From Ostreococcus lucimarinus (Eukaryota), in NCBI GenBank assembly GCA_000092065.1, contig CP000593.1: DNA of 64,000 bases; one strand, written 5' to 3'. A program made the position numbers and the translations under genes. Positions 35,728 to 53,130 of this stretch are shown here, piece after piece (the first letter of the stretch is position 1; every line of letters starts with the position of its first letter). The notes under the pieces are model-generated. The model did not search any database. It was not told the DNA's origin and worked only from the letters and a program-made list of their open reading frames with translations.

Positions 35728-36353
35728 CACAGCGCGCCGCGCGCCTAGTCCATTTGTATCGAAAGTCTCCTTTCTTAGTGTATTACATTCGCATGATTCA
35801 TTCGCCGCTAAACTAAAATTAAACAGGCTCTCGCGACCCTATTCGAGCTCGAGTCGCTTCTCCACATCCTTCCAGAGTTTACCCTTATTCGAGCTGCGCG
35901 CGAACCGTCGACGAAAACCTCGGTCAATCCCCATTCGCATCATCGCGCGCGCGCGCGCGCGCCTCGCGCGCGTCGCGCGCGTCGCGTCGTTTCGCGTCGC
36001 GTCGTTTCGCGTCGCGTCGCTTCGACCCCTCACCTCTCCCACGCGCGATCGAATCCGTAGTTCAACGCCTTCTCCCCCGCGAGCGCCCCCGCGACGATCA
36101 CCCCGACGTACACCGCCGAATTCTGCGCGCGCGCGTTCGCGCCTCGTCAGTCCCCCCGTCCTCGCGCGCGTCGCGCGCCGCCCTCCCCCCTCGTCGTCGA
36201 GATCGCGCGCTCGATCGTCGCCGCCTCGCGCGCGCCGTCGCCCGCGCGCCGCCCGCGCGCCGTCGCCCGCGCGCGCCGTCGCGCCCGCGCGCGCTCGCGC
36301 GCACGCACCGACATGAACGTCTTGTAAAACGCGCCGAACATCGTCGCGCGTCC

Positions 36354-36592
36354 GTCCGTCGATCGCGTCGCGATCTGCGCGCGCGCGCGTCGTCGCCGCC
36401 GATCGCTCGAACCTCGAGCCATCGATCGTTCGCGCAGATTTAACCGCATCGCGAGGTTCGATCGACGACGCCGTCCGTCGATCGCGCGTCGCGATCCGCG
36501 CGCGCGCGCGATCGTCGCCGCCGATCGCTCGAACCTCGAGCCATCGATCGACTCCACCGATTTCACCGCATCGCGAGGTTCGATCGACGACG
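36354..36592. repeat. Tandem repeat, 119-bp unit x2, CGATCG-rich, upstream of the ANTH gene
   Basis: The unit gtccgtcgatcgcgtcgcgatc...ccgcatcgcgaggttcgatcgacgacg recurs at 36354 and 36473 with about 90% identity. Confidence 0.8.
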
Positions 36593-36662
36593 CGCGCGCG
36601 GGTTCGCCGGCGCGCGGGCGCGCCCGCGCCGGCACAGACGCGCGCGGTCGCGTCGGCGCGCG

Positions 36663-38813
36663 ATGCCGCTCCGGTTGCAGAAAAAGGCGTCGCGCGTCGT
36701 GCGCGCGGTGGCGGAGGAGGTCCAGGTCGCGCGCGGCGTCGGCACGCGCACCGATAAGCGCGGGAACGCGAAGACGGCGCTGTGGGAGCGCGGCAAGGTG
36801 CGATCGAGCGGCGGATTGGCGCGTGTCTCGATCGGCGCGACGAGGATCGCGCGCGAACGCGCGACGCGAGGCGACGCGCGACGCGCGCGCGCGGAGACGC
36901 GAAGGGAAACCCGCGCGGGAGATTCGGGGAGACGCGCGAGAGACTGACGGGACGCGGACGCGACGCAGGCGAAACTCGCGGCGACGGCGGTGGAGAAGGA
37001 GTTCGCCGAGACGCAGTTGGCGTTTAGCAAGGCGACGAATTTCGATGACGTGCCGCCGAAGGAGAAGCACGTGCTGGCGCTGGTGCGCACGTGCGGAGGC
37101 GCGGGCGGAGGGAGCTCGAGGGATCGGGCGTTCGTGTTGGAGACGTTGGCGAGACAGGTGCGGAAGTGCGCGCCGTGGAGGACGATGCTGAAGACGCACG
37201 TGTTGCTGCACAGGTTGATGCGGGAGTGCGAGGGAGGGGGGTTTAAGGATGACTTCTTCAGGTTTTTGGAATTTTTATCTCGGAAAACGTACGGGCCGAA
37301 AGAACAGACGCTGTTTAACATTCGCTACTGGAAGGACGAGACCAACAAGGACGCGTACGAGTTGTCGGGGTGGACGCGCGCGTACGCGGCGTACCTCGAA
37401 GAGCTGTGCGCTTTGAATGAGTTCATCCCGAGCCTCGTAGGAAACGTGAGTGGCGCGGTGACGACGACGACAAACGGCGAGGCGCGAGCGGTGGTGGCGA
37501 ATCCGTTGAAAGATTGTGATTTCGCGACGTTGATCAAGGTTTTGCCCTTGGTGCAGACGCTCGTGCGACGCATCACGGATTGCGCGCCAACATCTACGAC
37601 GCTGCAGAAAAATGCCGTCTCGCGATACGCCGTCGGACTCGTCGCAAAGGATAGTTTCTTGGTGTATCGCGTCATGAACGAGGGCATCATAAACCTGGTG
37701 GACAAGTACTTTGAAACGAGCAAAGTCGAGGCGGAGAAAGGGTTGGTGATTTTCAAAAAGTACTTGACGCAAATCGAAGACTTGCAACGATTTTACGACA
37801 CGTGCGAAGCGTGCGCGGCGGTGGAAAACGCAGTCGTCAAGCTTGAAGCACCCCCTGCGACGTTTTTGAAGAGCATGGAAGAGTACTTCGAATCGGCGCC
37901 TCGCGAAGGCTTGCCTCTTCGCGAGCGGCGGTTGGGCGCGACATCTTCGACGACGGCGAACAATGCACGAGCGAATGCGGTGGGGTCGACAATGTTGGCG
38001 ATCGACGTCCCCGCCAACAACGCGGACTTTATCAGTACCACTGCTGCGCTACCGCCGGTGGAGCCGTTGAATGCGCTCGATGCGCTCAGTCAGCTTGATT
38101 TAGGTACGCCGAGCCCAACGAGCAAAGACGATGTTTTTAGCTCAAACGCGCTGCCCGCGCCGACGCAACCGCCGGCGTTAGCGCCGGTCGCGCCCGCAGC
38201 TTCGAGCAGTACAAGCGCACTTGATTCTTTCTCCGAGTCAATCGCTCCGGCGGTGCCGACGGAACCCTCTGCGGTGGCGTACAACCCATTCGGAGCGAAC
38301 CCATACGGCGGCGCCCCGCAAATGGTGCCGGCGGCTCCGCAAACGGCGCCGGCGCCCCAAGCAAAATCGCCGAGAAGCACGAACCCATTCGGAAATAACC
38401 CGTTCGGTACACCACAGCCTCAAAGTTTGGACAAGAGCGCACTCAATGACTTATACGCGCAAGCTCCAGCGTCACCCAGGAGTGGCCATGGCATGAGTTC
38501 CATGGCACCGCCGCAACACATCAATCCGAGCTTTATGCAAGCGCCGCCCAACAGCGCCTTGCAGCGGCAGCAAGTTGGCGCACCTCAGCTAGCGCTACCG
38601 ATGGCTGGTGTGCAGTATCCACAACAATATCCGCAGATGGCGTTCCCCCAGCACCATCAGCAGATGGGATACCCGCAGCAGCATCCGCAGATGGGATATC
38701 CCCAGCGCCCGGCGGCTGAACCACCGTTGCACCCGGCGTTCGCCAACCCTCACCAAGGCGGCAGTCCAAGTTCTAGCGCTCCATCACCGCAGAACTCCGG
38801 CAGTTTGATTTGA
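36663..38813 (+). CDS. ANTH/ENTH-domain clathrin assembly protein (AP180/PICALM-like); probable two exons join(36663..36797, 36969..38813)
   Basis: The ANTH core is ...AFSKATNFDDVPPKEKHV...NEGIINLVDKYFETSKVEAEKGLVIFKKYLTQIEDLQRF (compare [39 protein letters not shown]). The C-terminal half is Pro/Gln/Ala-rich with NPF motifs (NPFGANPYG, TNPFGNNPFG). The listed ORF starts at GTG 36990. The frame stays open back to an acceptor gacgcag|GCG at 36969. A candidate exon 1 (ATG 36663, donor AAG|GTGCGA at 36798) joins in phase. The exon 1 assignment is tentative. Confidence 0.6.
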
Positions 38814-38898
38814 TCTAGAGCGACACGACGAGAATAAGCACGCAAATGAACAACCAAACGCGCGCGCTTCCCTTTGTCGCCACAGCGCGCCTCGCGCC

Positions 38899-40368
38899 AT
38901 GTCGCTCGCCGTCCATCTCTCATCCACCCGCACGCGCGGCGCGACGCCGTTCGCGCGCGTCAATCGCGCAAAACAGTCGCGCGTCGCATACCAGCGCGTC
39001 TCCACGCGCGCATCGCGACGCGTCGCGACGCTAGTTCGCGTTGTCCCGCTCAAAAAGTGCTGCGCTTTTTCGCAGTCATCCTCGCGCCGTTCCGCTACGC
39101 GCGCGCGCGCGACGGCCGCCGCGCCGCGCGACGCCGACGATGCGAATAAAATCATCCTCGCCCTCGGCGTGGCCATGCTGCTCGCGAGCGCGGACCGAAC
39201 GATTTTCGCCGCCGCGGCGCTGAGCCTGAAGGCGGAGCTGGGCATGTCCATGAAGGATTTGGCGCTCGCGCAGAGCGCGTTTCTGTGGGGATACGGCGTC
39301 ACGCAGCTCGCGGCGGGCGCGTCGAGCGATCGATTCGGTGGCGCGAAGGTGTTGCTCGGTGGGCTGTGCGTGTGGTCGATCGCGGTGGCGGTGACGCCGC
39401 TGAGCTCGATGACGACGGCGCCGGTGCTCGCAGTCGTGGCGGCGCGATTTTTGTTCGGCGCGGCGAGCGGATGCGCGCTACCGGCGTCCGCAGCGGCGGT
39501 TGCGGCGCACGTGCCGGCGGAGCGACGGTCGGGCGCGTTGTCAACGATATTTGCGCTGTTTAACATTGGTTCGGCGTTCGGGCTCGCGGCGGCTGGAAGT
39601 TTGATCACGCAGTTTGGGTGGCGAGCGATTTTCTACGGCTTCGGCGCGTTTGGCGCGGCGTGGGCCGTCGCCGCCTACGCCGCAATGCCGCAGAGCGTGA
39701 AAACTTTCGTCCCTAGGGTACCGAAGGTGAGCGAGTTGAAGGATGAAAACGGCGAGCAAATGACCGAGTTGTCGTCCGAAGTTGCGACGCAGCTCGTTGC
39801 GCTGTTGTGGTGTCACGTCGTCGTGAACTGGGGGTTCATGATTTTACAGTCATGGCTGCCGGTGTATCTCGCGAACGACTTGGGAATGTCCATCGCGAGC
39901 TCTGGGATCCTCGGCGCTTTACCGTGGGTATTCACCGCGTTCATGTCATTTAGCTCGGGACAGGTGGCGGATAAGTTGATTAGTCGAGGGATGGAGCGAT
40001 GGAAAGTGCGTCGATTGGCGATGAACGTCGCCACCATCGGTCCCGCCCTGGGATTATTCGCGTTGAAGTACACCACCACCGCGAGCGTCGCGTTGGCGTG
40101 CATCGTCGCCACGCTCGGTCTTCAAGCCGTCGCGGTTGCGGGGTATCACAGTTACCTTCAGGACGTCGCTCCGTCTCGCGCGGGCGCTATTCTCGGTTTC
40201 ACAAACACGGTCGGCGTCGTCGGTTCAATCGTCGCCAACATGGTGACTGGCGCGAGCGTCGAGGCGACGGGGTCGTTTCAAGCGACATTTTTGTACACCG
40301 CGGCGATGTACGCGAGCTCTTGCTTTGTTTGGAATGCATTCTTGAAGGGTGAGCAGTTGTTTCCGTAA
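38899..40368 (+). CDS. MFS transporter, SLC17/PHT4-like anion transporter, probably plastid-targeted
   Basis: Twelve-TM MFS layout. SLC17-like TM1-2 region DRTIFAAAALSLKAELGMSMKDLALAQSAFLWGYGVTQLAAGASSDRFGGAKVL. The N-terminus is S/R/T-rich and transit-like. Real ATG. Confidence 0.7.
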   Translation: MSLAVHLSSTRTRGATPFARVNRAKQSRVAYQRVSTRASRRVATLVRVVPLKKCCAFSQSSSRRSATRARATAAAPRDADDANKIILALGVAMLLASADRTIFAAAALSLKAELGMSMKDLALAQSAFLWGYGVTQLAAGASSDRFGGAKVLLGGLCVWSIAVAVTPLSSMTTAPVLAVVAARFLFGAASGCALPASAAAVAAHVPAERRSGALSTIFALFNIGSAFGLAAAGSLITQFGWRAIFYGFGAFGAAWAVAAYAAMPQSVKTFVPRVPKVSELKDENGEQMTELSSEVATQLVALLWCHVVVNWGFMILQSWLPVYLANDLGMSIASSGILGALPWVFTAFMSFSSGQVADKLISRGMERWKVRRLAMNVATIGPALGLFALKYTTTASVALACIVATLGLQAVAVAGYHSYLQDVAPSRAGAILGFTNTVGVVGSIVANMVTGASVEATGSFQATFLYTAAMYASSCFVWNAFLKGEQLFP

Positions 40369-40370
40369 AA

Positions 40371-40799
40371 AATAAGATGTAAATATAAAAAATGAATCCG
40401 TCACTCTTAGACTGCGATCGCGTTCCGATGCGTGTCGGAAATGGTAGACTGCCAGCGGAGCCATCAAAGGCTTCCTAATCGTCAACCGCACGATCCGCCC
40501 CAAAGTAAACTTTAATAAGATGTAAATATGAAAAATGAATCCGTCACTCTTAGACTGCGATCGCGTTCCGATGCGTGTCGGAAATGGTAGACTGCCAGCG
40601 GAGCCATCAAAGGCTTCCTAATCGTCAACCGCACGATCCGCCCCAAAGTAAACTTTAATAAGATGTAAATATGAAAAATGAATCCGTCACTCTTAGACTG
40701 CGATCGCGTTCCGATGCGTGTCGGAAATGGTAGACTGCCAGCGGAGCCATCAAAGGCTTCCTAATCGTCAACCGCACGATCCGCCCCAAAGTAAACTTT
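40371..40799. repeat. Tandem repeat, 143-bp unit x3, near-identical copies
   Basis: The unit aataagatgtaaatat[a/g]aaaaatgaatccgtcactcttagactgcgatcgcgttccgatgcgtgtcggaaatggtagactgccagcggagccatcaaaggcttcctaatcgtcaaccgcacgatccgccccaaagtaaacttt begins at 40371, 40514 and 40657. It starts 3 bp after the MFS stop and ends 43 bp before the stop of the convergent gene. Each unit has an AT-rich head with TGTAA and an internal hairpin ccga-tgcgtg-tcgg. Confidence 0.9.
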
Positions 40800-40841
40800 G
40801 AAAGTTATGCACTGATGCGTGTGCGATGATTATCTCGCGAA

Positions 40842-42359
40842 TTACACGAGAATCATGGTGGCGATGGCGACGAAGGTCACCGTCACAAGATTCGCGCCGA
40901 TGCGCGCCGCGGGAGACGCGCCGAGAAGCGCGGCGACGGCGACACGTTGCGCGGAAAGCTGCGCGAGGCACAGACCGTTGACTCGGGCGTTGTCCCACAG
41001 CGTACACTCATTCGCCGTCGTTTTCACGACGACGTCGTTGCTGTTGATGTCTCGGAAGAATCGAGGGCATCCTTCTTGAAGAGTCGTGACGCCCGCGACG
41101 CCATTCAGCCACGACAGACGCACGAGATCTTGCACGACCACAGCCGGATGCACGTAAGAGTCCTCGAACCACGTCAACGACTCGGTCGGCCAAAAGGTTG
41201 AGTGTGAGTACAAGGGATCACCATCGCTGACGTGCTTGTCCAATCGCAAGATCATACCAGTCGACGGTGAAAGACTGGGAAGACCCGGCGCTTCGTTGAA
41301 GGCAAGATTCGTGATGACGGCGGTCTTCGTCGCATCCGTGCTCGGCGTAGTGAACCACGATTCATCGATGACGACGGCAACATTTGCCATATCGGTGAGA
41401 AACGCCGCTTTGCTTGGATACTTGTAATAGCCCGCGCTCGACGTCGCCGCGCTCGGAATGTGAATGCTCAAGCCCGCGGCGGTACAAATGTCTCGCTTGT
41501 AGTCGTCCCAAGTGATTTCGTACGCAGCAGTAACCCAGGCGCACTTGTAACCGGTTGGAATGCCACCTCGAGCTTGCGCCGCGGCGACTTGCCCCGCCAT
41601 GTAATTCCAACGTTCGTACTGGTCGGCGTAGTAACCGCTCGCTTGGGTCTCCTTGTTGAAAAACAAAGAGATAAATTTGATGAACGAAAGTCGCTCGAGC
41701 ATGCCGAGATTCGTGTGCGACGGCGTGAACACCACATCCTTGTCCGAGTTCGAATACCCGGTGTCCCACTCATCCGTGATGACCATCTCCACATTATTGG
41801 TCGAAATACTGTTGTGCCACAGCGTGTAATTGTACTTCGACGCACCCAAATAAATCACGTGACTCGCCGCGAGCGTTCCGTCCTCCTCCGCCTTTTGCAC
41901 GCACGGCGCGTGCACGTACGCCGGATCGATCAACTTCAACTTATCTCGCAATCCGAGCTGTTCGAGGTATCCGACCGCGACGCTCATTCCCGTGGCCACG
42001 CGTTTCACCGGCACCGAGAAGAATCGCGCACCCGCGGGGAACGCCGACCCGTCGACGTCCTGCGTCGGCTGCGTCGTCCCGCACTGGTACAGCACGTACG
42101 TCAACGCCTCGACGCCCGGCAGCGCCTTCGTGCGCACCACCTTGAACGTCTCGGCGTAGGTGACATTGAACCCTTCGCCACCGTCCACGAACGCGCTCGC
42201 GCTTCCCGAGGTGAGATTCCCCGGGGACAAGCGCGCGGCGGCGGGAAAGAAATCTGTCCCGCTCGGCGTCGACGACGTCGCGCAGGCTTGGTTATCCACC
42301 GCCGAGGCGCGCGCGGTGCCGACGAGGGCGAGGAGGGTGAGCAGACGTACGCACGACAT
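40842..42359 (-). CDS. Cell-surface periplasmic-binding-protein-like (FhuD/FecB class) protein with signal peptide and C-terminal hydrophobic anchor (tentative)
   Basis: Signal peptide MSCVRLLTLLALVGTARASA. The C-terminal LVTVTFVAIATMILV looks like a GPI or TM anchor. The central region reads like a class III binding-protein fold (KRVATGMSVAVGYLEQLGLRDKLKLID...VEMVITDEWD...ANVAVVIDESW). By-eye resemblance only. Confidence 0.4.
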   Translation of the reverse strand: MSCVRLLTLLALVGTARASAVDNQACATSSTPSGTDFFPAAARLSPGNLTSGSASAFVDGGEGFNVTYAETFKVVRTKALPGVEALTYVLYQCGTTQPTQDVDGSAFPAGARFFSVPVKRVATGMSVAVGYLEQLGLRDKLKLIDPAYVHAPCVQKAEEDGTLAASHVIYLGASKYNYTLWHNSISTNNVEMVITDEWDTGYSNSDKDVVFTPSHTNLGMLERLSFIKFISLFFNKETQASGYYADQYERWNYMAGQVAAAQARGGIPTGYKCAWVTAAYEITWDDYKRDICTAAGLSIHIPSAATSSAGYYKYPSKAAFLTDMANVAVVIDESWFTTPSTDATKTAVITNLAFNEAPGLPSLSPSTGMILRLDKHVSDGDPLYSHSTFWPTESLTWFEDSYVHPAVVVQDLVRLSWLNGVAGVTTLQEGCPRFFRDINSNDVVVKTTANECTLWDNARVNGLCLAQLSAQRVAVAALLGASPAARIGANLVTVTFVAIATMILV

Positions 42360-42600
42360 CGCGCGAGCGGGCGTCGGCGAGCCGTGGTGTGGCGGAACGT
42401 TGCGATGGGCGGCAGACAAGTTGACGTCTCGTTCGCGAAAAAAACCCTAAAGGTTGCTAGAATAAACGTTCACAAAGCGGTAAATCTTGGAGATAACGCG
42501 CGGCGAGCTAGTGAAGTGCCGCGCGAGATGATGCAAGATGGGATAAGATGAGAGAACGTCGCGCGAGGCGACATCGCGAGGGCGAAGAGCTCATCGAAAC

Positions 42601-44049
42601 TCACGCCGACTTTGATTTGACGCGCTGAGATCCGTGCACGTAATAGTGCTTCCCGACGTCGTTCAAGTTGCCGAACGTCGCCTTCCAGGCCCCATAATAC
42701 GTCAAGACCTTGTAGTTTAAGTTCCACTTCTTCGCAAACGGGACGAATCGGCGGGAGACTTCGGGTTGGCGGAACTGAGGCATATCCGGGAACAGGTGAT
42801 GGATGACTTGGCAGTTCAAGTAGCCCATCAACCAGTTGACGACGCTGTTGTTCGGATTGATGTCGATCGTGTGATCGACGGCGTATCGCACCCACGAGAG
42901 GTGTTTATCGCTCGGCACGACATCCAAGTGCGTGTGAGACGTGGAAAAGTGCGCGAACAAGTAACATCCGCTCGCCCACATCGTCGCCGCGAACAAGCCG
43001 TACGAGGCGATCCAGGAGTAGCCGGTGACGGCTTTGATAACCGCCGTGCGAATGACGTGCGCGGAAAACATCCAAGCCGCTTCTTCGAAGCTTTTGCGTC
43101 GCAGCGCGTTACGCGGGTGCAAGACGAACATCCAGAAGAACAAAACCATACCGGACGTCACGGGCACGAAGGTCCACGCTTGAAGGCGCAACCACAACTT
43201 ACTGAATCCCCGCGGGCGATTTTCTTCAACCGCGGAGTTGAAGAACGCCACCGTGGGAGTGGTGTCGAGATCCATATCGTGTCGCACCTTTTGGGGCGTC
43301 GCGTGATGCTTGTTGTGCATGTTGTTCCACATGTCGCCACTCGACGCCAAGCCGAACCCCGCGGCGAAGGCTTGGATTCGCTTGTCCCACCAAATGTTTC
43401 CAGTCAACGAATTGTGCCCACCCTCGTGCTGCACCCAACCGCATCGCGCGCCGAAGAAACACGAGTACACGATCACGGAAGCGACGTGCCAACGCGCGTG
43501 CATCAACGCCGTGCCGAGCGCGAACATCGCCGCGAGCTCGGCGAATCGATACGCCACGTGCGCCGGCGAGGGCTTAAAAAATCCCTCACGCTCCAATTCC
43601 TTGCGCCACTGCGCGAAATCCTTCAGCATCGCCTCATCTTCGATCGGTTCCCGCGTCGCCGCGTCCACTGGCTTATGCGGCAACGCCGCCAACGCCTTGC
43701 GCGCCTTTTTCGACCGATAATGAAACTCTTTAAAAGCCTCCGTCGCGTCCGCTCCCGTGTTCGACAGCATGTAATAAATAACCGATCCTCCGGGATGCTT
43801 AAAATCCGTCACATCGTATTCCACGCCTTCGATCGTCACGTACCGCCGTTCGAACGTCTTCGCGATCGCGTGCGGCTCCAACTCTTTCGTCCACGCCGTG
43901 ACGCTCGCGTTTCGAGTCTTCTTCCCCGCGTCTTCGCTTCCCATCCCGACCGTCACCGTCGGCGTTCCGCCTTCGCTCAGCGACGACGACGAGCTCGTGC
44001 GTTCGTTCGCCATCGTTCGCGATGTGCCTTCGGTCGTTTCGACGCACAT
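42601..44049 (-). CDS. Front-end fatty-acid desaturase with N-terminal cytochrome b5 domain (delta-6/delta-5/delta-4 or sphingolipid delta-8 type)
   Basis: Cytochrome b5 heme motif HPGGSVIYYML...EAFKEFH. Histidine boxes HEGGH, HNKHH, and the third box QVIHHLFP (Q replacing H is diagnostic of front-end desaturases). The start is ATG 44049 or 44013. Confidence 0.85.
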   Translation of the reverse strand: MCVETTEGTSRTMANERTSSSSSLSEGGTPTVTVGMGSEDAGKKTRNASVTAWTKELEPHAIAKTFERRYVTIEGVEYDVTDFKHPGGSVIYYMLSNTGADATEAFKEFHYRSKKARKALAALPHKPVDAATREPIEDEAMLKDFAQWRKELEREGFFKPSPAHVAYRFAELAAMFALGTALMHARWHVASVIVYSCFFGARCGWVQHEGGHNSLTGNIWWDKRIQAFAAGFGLASSGDMWNNMHNKHHATPQKVRHDMDLDTTPTVAFFNSAVEENRPRGFSKLWLRLQAWTFVPVTSGMVLFFWMFVLHPRNALRRKSFEEAAWMFSAHVIRTAVIKAVTGYSWIASYGLFAATMWASGCYLFAHFSTSHTHLDVVPSDKHLSWVRYAVDHTIDINPNNSVVNWLMGYLNCQVIHHLFPDMPQFRQPEVSRRFVPFAKKWNLNYKVLTYYGAWKATFGNLNDVGKHYYVHGSQRVKSKSA

Positions 44050-46039: not shown

Positions 46040-46330
46040 CCGCGGTGTGCCGTCGATCGATCGCTCGGCGCGCGCGCGCGTCGACCGCGCGAGGTTCGCG
46101 GCGCGCGCGCGATCGACGACGCGAGGGTCGCGCGATCGCGCGTCGATCGATCGCGCGCGCGGCCGCGCGACCGCGTCGATCGATCGCGCGCGCGCCGCGT
46201 CGATCGATGCGTCGTCGATCGACGCGCGCGCGCGATCGACGACGCGGCGGTCGCGCGATGGCGCGCGCGATCGATCGCGCGCGGTGGTGACGTCACCACC
46301 GGGCGCGGCGGCGACGCGCCGGCGCGCGGC
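46040..46330. repeat. CGATCG/GCGCGC-rich palindromic low-complexity tract in a divergent promoter spacer
   Basis: Reiterated cgatcgatcgcgcgcg / gcgcgcgatcgacgacgcg blocks sit between the coiled-coil gene start (46035, minus) and the HCF136 start (46374, plus). Confidence 0.7.
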
Positions 46331-52754: not shown

Positions 52755-53050
52755 GCGCGCGCGCGAAAACGATCGATCGATCGATCGAGGTTTAAAACGG
52801 CGCGCGGTCGAAACGCGCGCGAGGGTCGACGCGCGCGAGAACGATCGATCGATCGCGCGGTCGATCGGTCGATCGATCGAGGTTTAAAACGGCGCGCGGT
52901 CGACGCGCGCGCGAGGGTCGACGCGCGCGAGAACGATCGATCGATCGCGCGGTCGATCGGTCGATCGATCGAGGTTTAAAACGGCGCGCGGTCGAACCGC
53001 GCGCGAGGGTCGACGCGCGCGAGAACGATCGATCGCGCGGTCGATCGGTC
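52755..53050. repeat. Tandem repeat, 92-bp unit x about 3.2, in the TLK/FKBP divergent promoter
   Basis: The unit ...cgatcgatcgatcgaggtttaaaacggcgcgcggtcgaaacgcgcgcgagggtcgacgcgcgcgagaacgatcgatcgatcgcgcggtcgatcggt... is anchored by gaggtttaaaac at 52787, 52879 and 52971. Confidence 0.85.
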
Positions 53051-53130
53051 GCGCGGTCGGTCGCCGCCGCCGCCGCCGCCGCCGCGCGCGCGCGCCGACG
53101 CGCGACCGCGACGCGCGACCGACGCTCGAC

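Follow-up and report, generated by a model that had tools for sequence, protein, structure and literature searches.

A conserved structured RNA in the spacer between CBA1 and an MFS transporter gene of Ostreococcus, tandemly triplicated in Ostreococcus lucimarinus CCE9901

Is a short tandem array lying between two convergent genes a young satellite, or does the repeated unit carry sequence with a role of its own? The question is raised by a window of 64,000 nucleotides of Ostreococcus lucimarinus CCE9901 (contig CP000593.1; the window is the whole stretch of DNA analysed), in which positions 40371–40799 are occupied by three units of 143 bp (40371–40513, 40514–40656 and 40657–40799). On the left, the array is bounded by the gene of an MFS transporter on the plus strand and, on the right, by the gene of a homologue of cobalamin acquisition protein 1 (CBA1) on the minus strand. 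Comparison with related loci indicated that every unit contains a structured RNA, in the sense of CBA1, which is present at the same site throughout the genus Ostreococcus.

The array was described by Tandem Repeats Finder with a period of 143, 3.0 copies, 99% matches, 0 indels and a score of 851, and it is by far the strongest repeat of the window. It has the form of a minisatellite, with head-to-tail repetition of one unit at one locus. When the three units were aligned, unit position 17 was the sole variable column, with A at 40387 and G at 40530 and 40673. The near identity of the units, differing at one a/g, and the very recent expansion that it implies were thus correctly recognised in a preliminary description of this DNA. 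The same holds for the statement that the array fills the convergent 3' spacer: the stop codon TAA of the MFS gene is at 40366–40368 and the array begins at the third base past it, and 42 nt separate the end of the array from the stop codon of the CBA1 open reading frame (ORF) at 40842–40844. Each unit carries TGTAA on the plus strand (40378–40382, 40521–40525 and 40664–40668), a hairpin that reads ttccga-tgcgtg-tcggaa on that strand, and two copies of the 8-mer TAGACTGC, for which 8 matches were found in the window against 0.67 expected by chance. Both the hairpin and the duplicated 8-mer had been noted before; both are real and both are parts of the RNA structure described below.

The comparison loci (L001–L042) included contigs from metagenome collections of the Joint Genome Institute (JGI), and several of them share an MFS protein identical to that of the window. 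Ostreococcus lineages were delimited by CBA1 identity, giving at least five besides O. lucimarinus. The gene order ANTH, MFS (PHT4-like), CBA1 and delta-6 desaturase (window 36990–44049) is kept in every sampled Ostreococcus lineage, and the identity of CBA1 to that of the window in the syntenic loci is 76% (L012, L013), 57% (L014) and 55% (L015, L016), and 48% (L039, L042) and 46% (L040, the O. mediterraneus cluster) in the farthest of them. The spacer of every syntenic lineage has one alignable copy of the element, the remaining spacer being unalignable. The core of the element is 73–79% identical, with 56 of its 89 columns invariant and with long invariant strings that include GGGGCGGA, GUUGACGAUUAG, CGCUGGCAGUC and UCGCAGUCUAAGA. 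The four-fold degenerate sites of both flanking genes, compared between O. lucimarinus and the lineages of L014, L015 and L039, are 35–59% identical. The core is therefore far more conserved than the four-fold sites, and this sequence comparison indicates that the non-coding element is under purifying selection.

Each unit consists, on the minus strand, of a structured RNA of approximately 114 nt followed by an AU-rich tail of 29 nt. The copy nearest the CBA1 stop is located at 40681–40794 (RNA position 1 being 40794), the middle copy at 40538–40651 and the copy nearest the MFS gene at 40395–40508, all of them on the minus strand and each with a covariance model score of 119 bits (E 1.6e-27 for the first). 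Single-sequence folds of the minus strand of nine variants concurred in a closing helix (P1), an arm (P2) and a hairpin (P3). In the copy nearest CBA1, P1 is a helix of 19 bp between the 5' strand UUACUUUGGGGCGGAUCGUG (40775–40794, minus strand) and the 3' strand CGCGAUCGCAGUCUAAGAGUGA (40687–40708, minus strand), which was identified from the folds and from covariation. The P2 arm (40729–40773, minus strand), delimited by the alignments, its invariant columns and covariation in its hairpin P2b, comprises a GAC/GUC helix, an invariant 5x7 internal loop GAUUA/GCUGGCA and the hairpin GRAGCC/GGCUYC, and it is the most sequence-conserved part of the element. P3 (40709–40726, minus strand) is the variable hairpin UUCCGA-CACGCA-UCGGAA of the single-sequence folds and the one noted in the preliminary description; it is retained in every lineage with different sequence and length, having one stem in O. 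lucimarinus and being enlarged to two or three stems in L015, L018 and L039. The two copies of the duplicated 8-mer are the 3' strands of P1 and P2; the P1 3' strand thus holds one of the two copies of GCAGUCUA, as it reads in the RNA. The heptamer GCAGUCU occurs twice in the RNA of all lineages, in the 3' strand of P1 and in that of P2 (40729–40745, minus strand).

Covariation was determined for P1 on 11 distinct sequences in the covariance-model alignment: 98.9% of the cells of its 19 pairs are paired, and 7 of the 19 pairs are changed on both sides, one of them taking C-G, A-U, G-C, U-A and U·G. The covariation score was 0.245, compared with 0.134 ± 0.012 after shuffling, and 0 of 500 shuffles reached the observed value; in slid-register controls 37–50% of cells were paired. 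These counts are biased towards the structure of the covariance model itself; P1 was first seen in the independent single-sequence folds. P2b shows a G-C to A-U covariation in a hand-curated alignment, which was also used for the strand counts since P2b is shifted by one column, and the 3' strand of L039 misplaced, in the alignments made by MAFFT and by the first covariance model. That lineage rebuilds P1 from a different sequence, AUCGA/UCGAU, in a shifted register.

The strand to which the structure belongs was assessed on 8 distinct variants from five lineages. On the minus strand, the helix cells comprise 184 Watson-Crick pairs, 34 G·U pairs and 5 others; on the plus strand, the same cells give 184 Watson-Crick pairs, 0 G·U pairs and 39 mismatches (A·C or other). 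RNAalifold applied to one alignment gave -25.05 kcal/mol for the minus strand versus -12.56 kcal/mol for the plus strand, and the invariant GGGC/GUCU segment of P1 pairs on the minus strand only. Since the G·U cells and the GGGC/GUCU pairing are both restricted to the minus strand, the RNA is CBA1-sense, and the element is a strand-specific structured RNA conserved across the genus Ostreococcus.

These counts bear directly on the idea that the element serves the other gene, or works at the level of DNA, as an element or terminator in the 3' untranslated region (UTR) of the MFS transcript or as a bidirectional terminator or insulator. Its position is compatible with such a role, as it starts 25–115 nt past the MFS stop in all lineages, and two convergent genes that must terminate within approximately 190 bp might profit from a stable structure that curbs read-through. 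An RNA of the plus strand was nevertheless rejected as a model, because every wobble position becomes A·C there: 39 of 223 helix cells are mismatched without a single G·U, against 218 of 223 paired on the minus strand, and the invariant GGGC/GUCU of P1 is unable to form. The TGTAA that starts 10 nt past the MFS stop moreover places the predicted end of the MFS mRNA at the border of the element. A generic terminator has no need of invariant loops and should recur at other convergent gene pairs, and no other copy was found in the metagenome scan or in the 210 kb searched. Altogether, we consider an action on the MFS strand or on the DNA to be quite improbable.

The presence of the element outside this locus was studied in several ways. 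No further copies of the 143-bp unit exist elsewhere in the 64-kb window. A degenerate pattern built from three invariant blocks was scanned over the JGI metagenome collection, where it found 22 loci, 17 of them being the CBA1–MFS locus of Ostreococcus lineages and the other five (L027, L030, L033, L035 and L036) chance matches without the rest of the motif. The covariance model (R1) recovered the three window copies and one or two copies per orthologous locus, and nothing beyond the CBA1–MFS loci in the 210 kb searched. In the viral contigs, neither the degenerate pattern nor an exact 25-mer scan with the unit gave any match, and an origin from a prasinovirus was rejected on these scans. The element is single-locus, with copies only at the CBA1–MFS spacer in the metagenome scan and in the 210 kb searched.

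The suggestion that the array is a satellite or an insertion resembling a miniature inverted-repeat transposable element (MITE) can be dismissed on the same data. The unit corresponds to the ancestral single-copy spacer and no copies were found elsewhere in the metagenome and viral collections. Terminal inverted repeats and target-site duplications, which had been proposed as a check at the array boundaries, are both missing: no inverted repeats are formed by the unit ends AATAAGATG...AAACTTT, and the array flanks CGTAAAA and GAAAGTT show no duplication. A MITE is rejected by the lack of dispersed copies in the window and in the metagenome scans and by the presence of the element at the orthologous site in every relative, with no empty site; a dispersed satellite is rejected by the occurrence of the unit at one site only in the window, metagenome and viral scans. 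Reiterated polyadenylation modules, another reading of the units, are incidental: TGTAA is located on the MFS strand in the AT-rich 29-nt part, and it is the other strand that carries the sequence under conservation and covariation.

Nor does the RNA belong to a described family. Searches against Rfam 15 gave no match at E<=10 for the array region of the window, none at E<=1 for five other lineages, and no relevant match at the gathering score for the whole window, in which ARAGORN detected no tRNA or tmRNA gene. A C/D or H/ACA small nucleolar RNA (snoRNA) was rejected, since the sole UGAUGG lies in the variable P2b loop and is unconserved, there is no conserved CUGA or terminal ACA, and Rfam gave no match. 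By inspection of the sequence, small nuclear RNA (snRNA), telomerase RNA, selenocysteine insertion sequence (SECIS) element, K-turn, iron-responsive element (IRE) and 11-nt tetraloop receptor were also discarded, the needed boxes or motifs being absent or unconserved and a telomere template lacking. The RNA motif is thus previously undescribed and absent from Rfam; the array itself is an ordinary copy-number variant generated by tandem duplication.

How did one conserved spacer become three? Among independent contigs that encode an identical MFS protein, the copy number of the spacer is 1, 2 or 3. One unit is present in L001–L005, L008 and L009 (the A variant), and also in L026, L029 and L037; two units in L011 (a 206-kb contig, A/A) and L019 (A/G); and three units, A/G/G, in the window and in L006, an independent JGI contig of 527 kb whose right flank differs. 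L007 and L010 have at least two units, with scaffold N-gaps within the array. The single-copy contigs are assemblies made with k=141, and a 141-mer from the A variant extends 14 nt into the right flank; single-copy molecules must therefore exist.

That the three copies of the reference were mis-assembled is accordingly extremely unlikely. Short-read assemblies do often miscount tandem repeats, and the N-gaps of L007 and L010 are inside the array. Against an artefact stand the same A/G/G array in L006, with a different haplotype and right flank, and the two copies of L011 and L019; the 429-bp array is, presumably, also shorter than a Sanger read, given how the CCE9901 reference was made. The three-copy and two-copy contigs, together with the k=141 single-copy contigs, show that the array is real, recent and variable. 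Copy number does vary between assemblies, which the preliminary description had considered a possible sign of collapse; the variation stands, and the single-copy and independent two- and three-copy contigs attribute it to population polymorphism and not to collapse. The 143-bp unit is consequently the spacer native to this convergent pair of genes, CBA1 and MFS, and not a satellite, a MITE or an assembly artefact.

Replication slippage or unequal exchange would account for the tandem duplication of this spacer in O. lucimarinus, one breakpoint of which is within a small palindromic cluster. The likely history is from one copy (A) to two (A/A), to A/G, and to three (A/G/G), and every one of these states is still found segregating in the wild. 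CCE9901 thus holds three copies of a candidate regulatory RNA. The cluster in question is the inverted-repeat sequence AAAGT-AA-ACTTT-G-AAAGT, and the tandem-duplication junction falls in the middle of it. Contig comparison also placed there, at the right edge of the array (40795–40807), an indel polymorphism of 13 nt, ACTTTGAAAGTTA, situated between the imperfect direct repeats AAAGTAA and AAAGTTA. It is present in the window, L005, L011, L026, L029 and L037, missing from L001–L004, L007–L010 and L019, and represented in L006 by the shorter variant GAAAGCACACTG.

The features of the array could also be attributed to a neutral minisatellite, in which the apparent conservation would reflect low divergence or the constraint of 3'-end processing signals. 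Copy number ranges freely from 1 to 3 among wild haplotypes, the near-identical units denote a recent expansion, and further spacer tandem repeats exist in the same window. Even so, 56 of 89 core columns are invariant while the four-fold sites are near saturation, compensatory changes affect seven P1 pairs as well as P2b, and poly(A) signals of 5 nt cannot explain invariant blocks of 12–15 nt or a strand-specific helix. We therefore give very little weight to this explanation of the unit. The expansion to three copies may well be neutral in itself; the content of the unit is not devoid of function. The locus resembles an ordinary minisatellite in its period of 143 bp, its 1–3 near-identical copies, its breakpoints by short inverted or direct repeats and the adjoining 13-nt slippage indel, and it differs from one in that the repeated unit is a functional-looking conserved RNA with the poly(A) signal of the neighbouring gene, instead of anonymous sequence.

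Three other tandem repeats were observed in spacers of the window: 122 bp x 2.0–2.3 (85–91% matches) at 36352–36629, upstream of the ANTH gene; 123 bp x 1.9 (84% matches) at 46051–46283; and 92 bp x 3.1 (95% matches) at 52770–53051, between divergent ORFs. They are GC-rich with CGATCG-type motifs, unlike the 143-bp array. Wild O. lucimarinus haplotypes have DNA identities to the window of 96.4–98.1% on the CBA1 side (40842–43600) and 99.6–99.8% on the MFS side (35900–40650), so that divergence on the CBA1 side is approximately 5–15 times that of the MFS/ANTH side, and the switch is located at the repeat. CBA1 protein variants of 90–95% identity are common. Either a recombination boundary or selection on a surface protein, relaxed or diversifying, could account for the divergence. 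A hypervariable CBA1 in L011 (3001–4530, 74% protein identity) was rejected, its DNA being 98.1% identical and the difference almost certainly due to frameshifts in a long-read contig.

The interpretation of the RNA depends on its neighbours. Strain CCE9901 was recognised as the source of the window by a downstream cytochrome-b5/desaturase ORF identical to its delta-6 desaturase (DAA34893.1). The MFS gene (38899–40368, plus strand) matches PF07690 with an E value of 2e-50 and bears database names of an ACS-family transporter or a PHT4-like sodium-dependent phosphate cotransporter. The CBA1 gene (40842–42359, minus strand) has an ORF of 525 codons, open from 42419, and the published protein begins at M21 (MSCVRLL...). 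The preliminary label of this gene, FhuD-like, is confirmed at the level of the fold and finds no support in Pfam, which gave no match to the protein. An AlphaFold2 model built from 17 homologues (predicted local distance difference test score, pLDDT, 76; predicted template modelling score, pTM, 0.76) was matched by Foldseek to class III periplasmic binding proteins (among them heme-binding PhuT, CeuE, FhuD-type and BtuF) at E values of 4e-8 to 4e-6, that for BtuF 1n2z being 4e-6. Algal CBA1 has a signal peptide, a C-terminal transmembrane helix and a BtuF-like fold, and the conserved residues of the Chlamydomonas protein CrCBA1 are F214 F215 N216 E218 and W394 F395 E396 (Sayer et al. 2023, PMC10828217). 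The window protein contains FFNKE at 253–257 and WFED at 417–420, with a hydrophobic N-terminus and a C-terminal helix at 503–524. In the supplement of the same paper, the O. lucimarinus CCE9901 match to the CBA1 hidden Markov model, MSCVRLLTLLALVGTARASAVDNQ..., equals the window ORF from M21 over the excerpts compared. Motifs, modelled fold and agreement with the published sequence therefore identify the convergent gene as the published O. lucimarinus CBA1 homologue. A need for CBA1 in B12 uptake has been shown for the Chlamydomonas and Phaeodactylum proteins only (PMC10828217). A profile search with the CBA1 protein found nothing outside Ostreococcus except one PF01497 protein.

In which transcript would the RNA be found? 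In O. lucimarinus the poly(A) signal that predominates is UGUAA (PMC6413133), which agrees with the earlier identification of TGTAA as such a signal. The TGTAA at 40378–40382 (plus strand), which starts 10 nt after the MFS stop and is repeated at 40521–40525 and 40664–40668, probably serves the MFS gene as its poly(A) signal, and TGTAA is also found just past the MFS stop in L012, L015, L016 and L018. The MFS mRNA should therefore end approximately at the edge of the element. On the CBA1 strand, the element is 40–60 nt downstream of the CBA1 stop, and no conserved promoter-like motif was found between stop and element, this stretch being unalignable among lineages. Given the predicted end of the MFS mRNA and the lack of a promoter-like motif, it is simplest to infer that the element is transcribed with CBA1 and accounts for most of its 3' UTR. 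L042, considered as a candidate transcript-derived contig for the 3' end of CBA1, was discarded, as it turned out to be genomic.

Our best reading is that the element is a cis-acting structured RNA of the CBA1 3' UTR, amplified threefold in the reference strain, and we assign to it a probability slightly above one half (approximately 0.55). The RNA would act in cis on the CBA1 mRNA, affecting how its 3' end is formed, how stable it is or how it is translated. A specific binding factor would mediate this; a protein is the more likely partner, and a small molecule connected with B12 status the less likely one. Covarying helices around an invariant loop and junction, with a variable stem, resemble by analogy both protein-binding regulatory RNAs and riboswitch aptamers. 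If the processing signal is in the tail of the unit, transcripts may end after the first copy; any further copies would in that case be close to neutral, and this would account for a copy number that varies freely.

Several points weigh against this reading. The z-score of the single-sequence fold is modest (-1.7), and the extent of the CBA1 3' UTR is a prediction from the sequence. In CCE9901, a UGUAA overlaps the CBA1 stop (GUG UAA; 40840–40846, minus strand), and if it served as the signal, the mRNA would stop short of the element; this pentamer is polymorphic, being UUUAA in L001 and L008, and is absent in other lineages. In O. lucimarinus, no poly(A) signal could be recognised past the element on the minus strand. 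Stand-alone small RNAs, too, typically have a long terminal helix. The identical helices of the three units are able to cross-pair between units, so that additional copies may not simply add function. The motif, finally, is seen only in Ostreococcus, with no match to the element at the distant CBA1-like locus L041. The CBA1-like gene of that locus (29% identity) is on a very GC-rich contig and has a 3' spacer of 310 nt (L041 2695–3004).

A rival reading is a stand-alone non-coding RNA of approximately 110–130 nt, transcribed or processed from the CBA1–MFS spacer as an independent stable RNA, for example as one of the unclassified medium-size RNAs of O. tauri, and acting in trans, for which the adjacency of CBA1 would be a conserved address only. 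Like many stable small RNAs, it has its 5' and 3' ends paired over a long helix, it is single copy per genome like housekeeping RNAs, and a run of U5–U6 occurs 12–20 nt past P1 in O. lucimarinus and L012, with a U4 run in L039. Moreover, 128 unclassified medium-size intergenic RNAs (Ot-mncR candidates), with sequences not included in the supplement, have been reported for O. tauri (PMC7671301). On the other hand, no promoter-like motif is conserved between the CBA1 stop and the element, the U-run is unconserved, there being none within 60 nt in L017, C/D and H/ACA boxes are either lacking or unconserved, and Rfam gave no match to snRNA, snoRNA, Y, vault or signal recognition particle (SRP) families. 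The motif words are also missing from the O. tauri snoRNA and snRNA sequences listed in that source (PMC7671301), a list that leaves the 128 unclassified candidates outside. The linkage to the CBA1 stop is strict and persists though both flanking proteins diverge to approximately 50%. We regard a trans-acting RNA as doubtful in comparison with the cis-acting element of the CBA1 3' UTR.

Which signal would a cis-acting element of CBA1 respond to? Ostreococcus lacks METE, as stated in bioRxiv 10.1101/065771, and because CBA1 is a B12-uptake protein in an alga without that gene, B12 status is the obvious candidate; we thus hypothesise that the element is B12-responsive. In a generic sense the architecture is aptamer-like, as in riboswitches: helices that covary enclose junction and loop positions that do not change, and the RNA is linked in cis to CBA1. 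The duplicates of GCAGUCU would give the GGGGC 5' strand two mutually exclusive partners and, speculatively, a switch. A putative cobalamin- or B12-status-responsive riboswitch in the CBA1 3' UTR is nonetheless, in our estimation, unlikely.

The known vitamin riboswitches differ from the element in definite features. In the green lineage, riboswitches for thiamin pyrophosphate (TPP) are described in the 3' UTR of plant THIC and in UTRs of prasinophyte genes (Wachter et al. 2007, as reported by McRose et al. 2014, PMC4260697). The Ostreococcus element shares with them the condition of a conserved, gene-specific structured RNA near a vitamin gene, in a location that is probably a UTR; in both, helices covary, nucleotides of the junction and loops are invariant, and a hairpin at the periphery is variable. 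Unlike them, it lacks CUGAGA, the nearest string being CUUAGA on the opposite strand, it lacks the P4/P5 arm, and it has no Rfam TPP match at E<=10; the known Ostreococcus TPP riboswitches do carry CUGAGA and are located in 5' UTRs of other genes. A TPP riboswitch (RF00059) was consequently rejected. Like the cobalamin riboswitches of bacterial btuB and B12-transport operons, the element adjoins a B12-acquisition gene with a BtuF-like product and is a multi-helix junction of approximately 100 nt. It is, however, situated 3' of its gene and in a eukaryote, it has a three-way junction in place of the four-way junction with kissing loop, and no covariance-model match was found at E<=10. The three cobalamin families (RF00174, RF01482 and RF01689) were rejected on the lack of an Rfam match and of GCCACUG, the B12 box, on both strands of the unit.

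Reiteration of regulatory RNAs has precedents of two kinds. The transferrin-receptor 3' UTR contains multiple IREs, each a hairpin of approximately 30 nt with a CAGUGN loop that is bound by IRP. As there, structured RNA is reiterated beside a nutrient-uptake gene, probably in its 3' UTR, and a model based on mRNA stability is plausible; unlike the IREs, the Ostreococcus element is a junction RNA of approximately 114 nt without the IRE consensus, and its reiteration is polymorphic and very recent, not fixed. This 3' UTR and that of plant THIC are the nearest analogues of the element, which would function most like a 3'-UTR regulatory RNA dedicated to one gene. Tandem bacterial riboswitches (glycine, tandem TPP) consist of fixed, diverged copies in 5' leaders. 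They share with the array a head-to-tail arrangement of complete structured RNAs, presumably within a single transcript, so that copy number could sharpen or shift a response; they differ in that the copies of O. lucimarinus are identical, located 3' of the gene and 1–3 in number within the species.

For annotation, the locus indicates that a repeat in a 3' spacer with the look of a young satellite can turn out to be a regulatory element in duplicate, and that relatives should be compared before such a repeat is dismissed. The element also adds a new RNA motif to a very compact eukaryotic genome, in which little intergenic sequence escapes constraint. In eukaryotic algae, no protein other than CBA1 is known to be needed for the uptake of B12, and Ostreococcus needs external B12; a covarying RNA attached to CBA1 throughout the genus is a concrete, small and mutable candidate for the control of this gene, and the natural one-, two- and three-copy alleles, with the reference strain among them, constitute a ready-made allelic series. 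If the riboswitch reading were true, the element would represent the first non-TPP riboswitch class in a eukaryote, alleles with one to three copies would differ in their dose-response, and it would provide the long-sought explanation of how an alga that depends on B12 adjusts the protein with which it takes up the vitamin.

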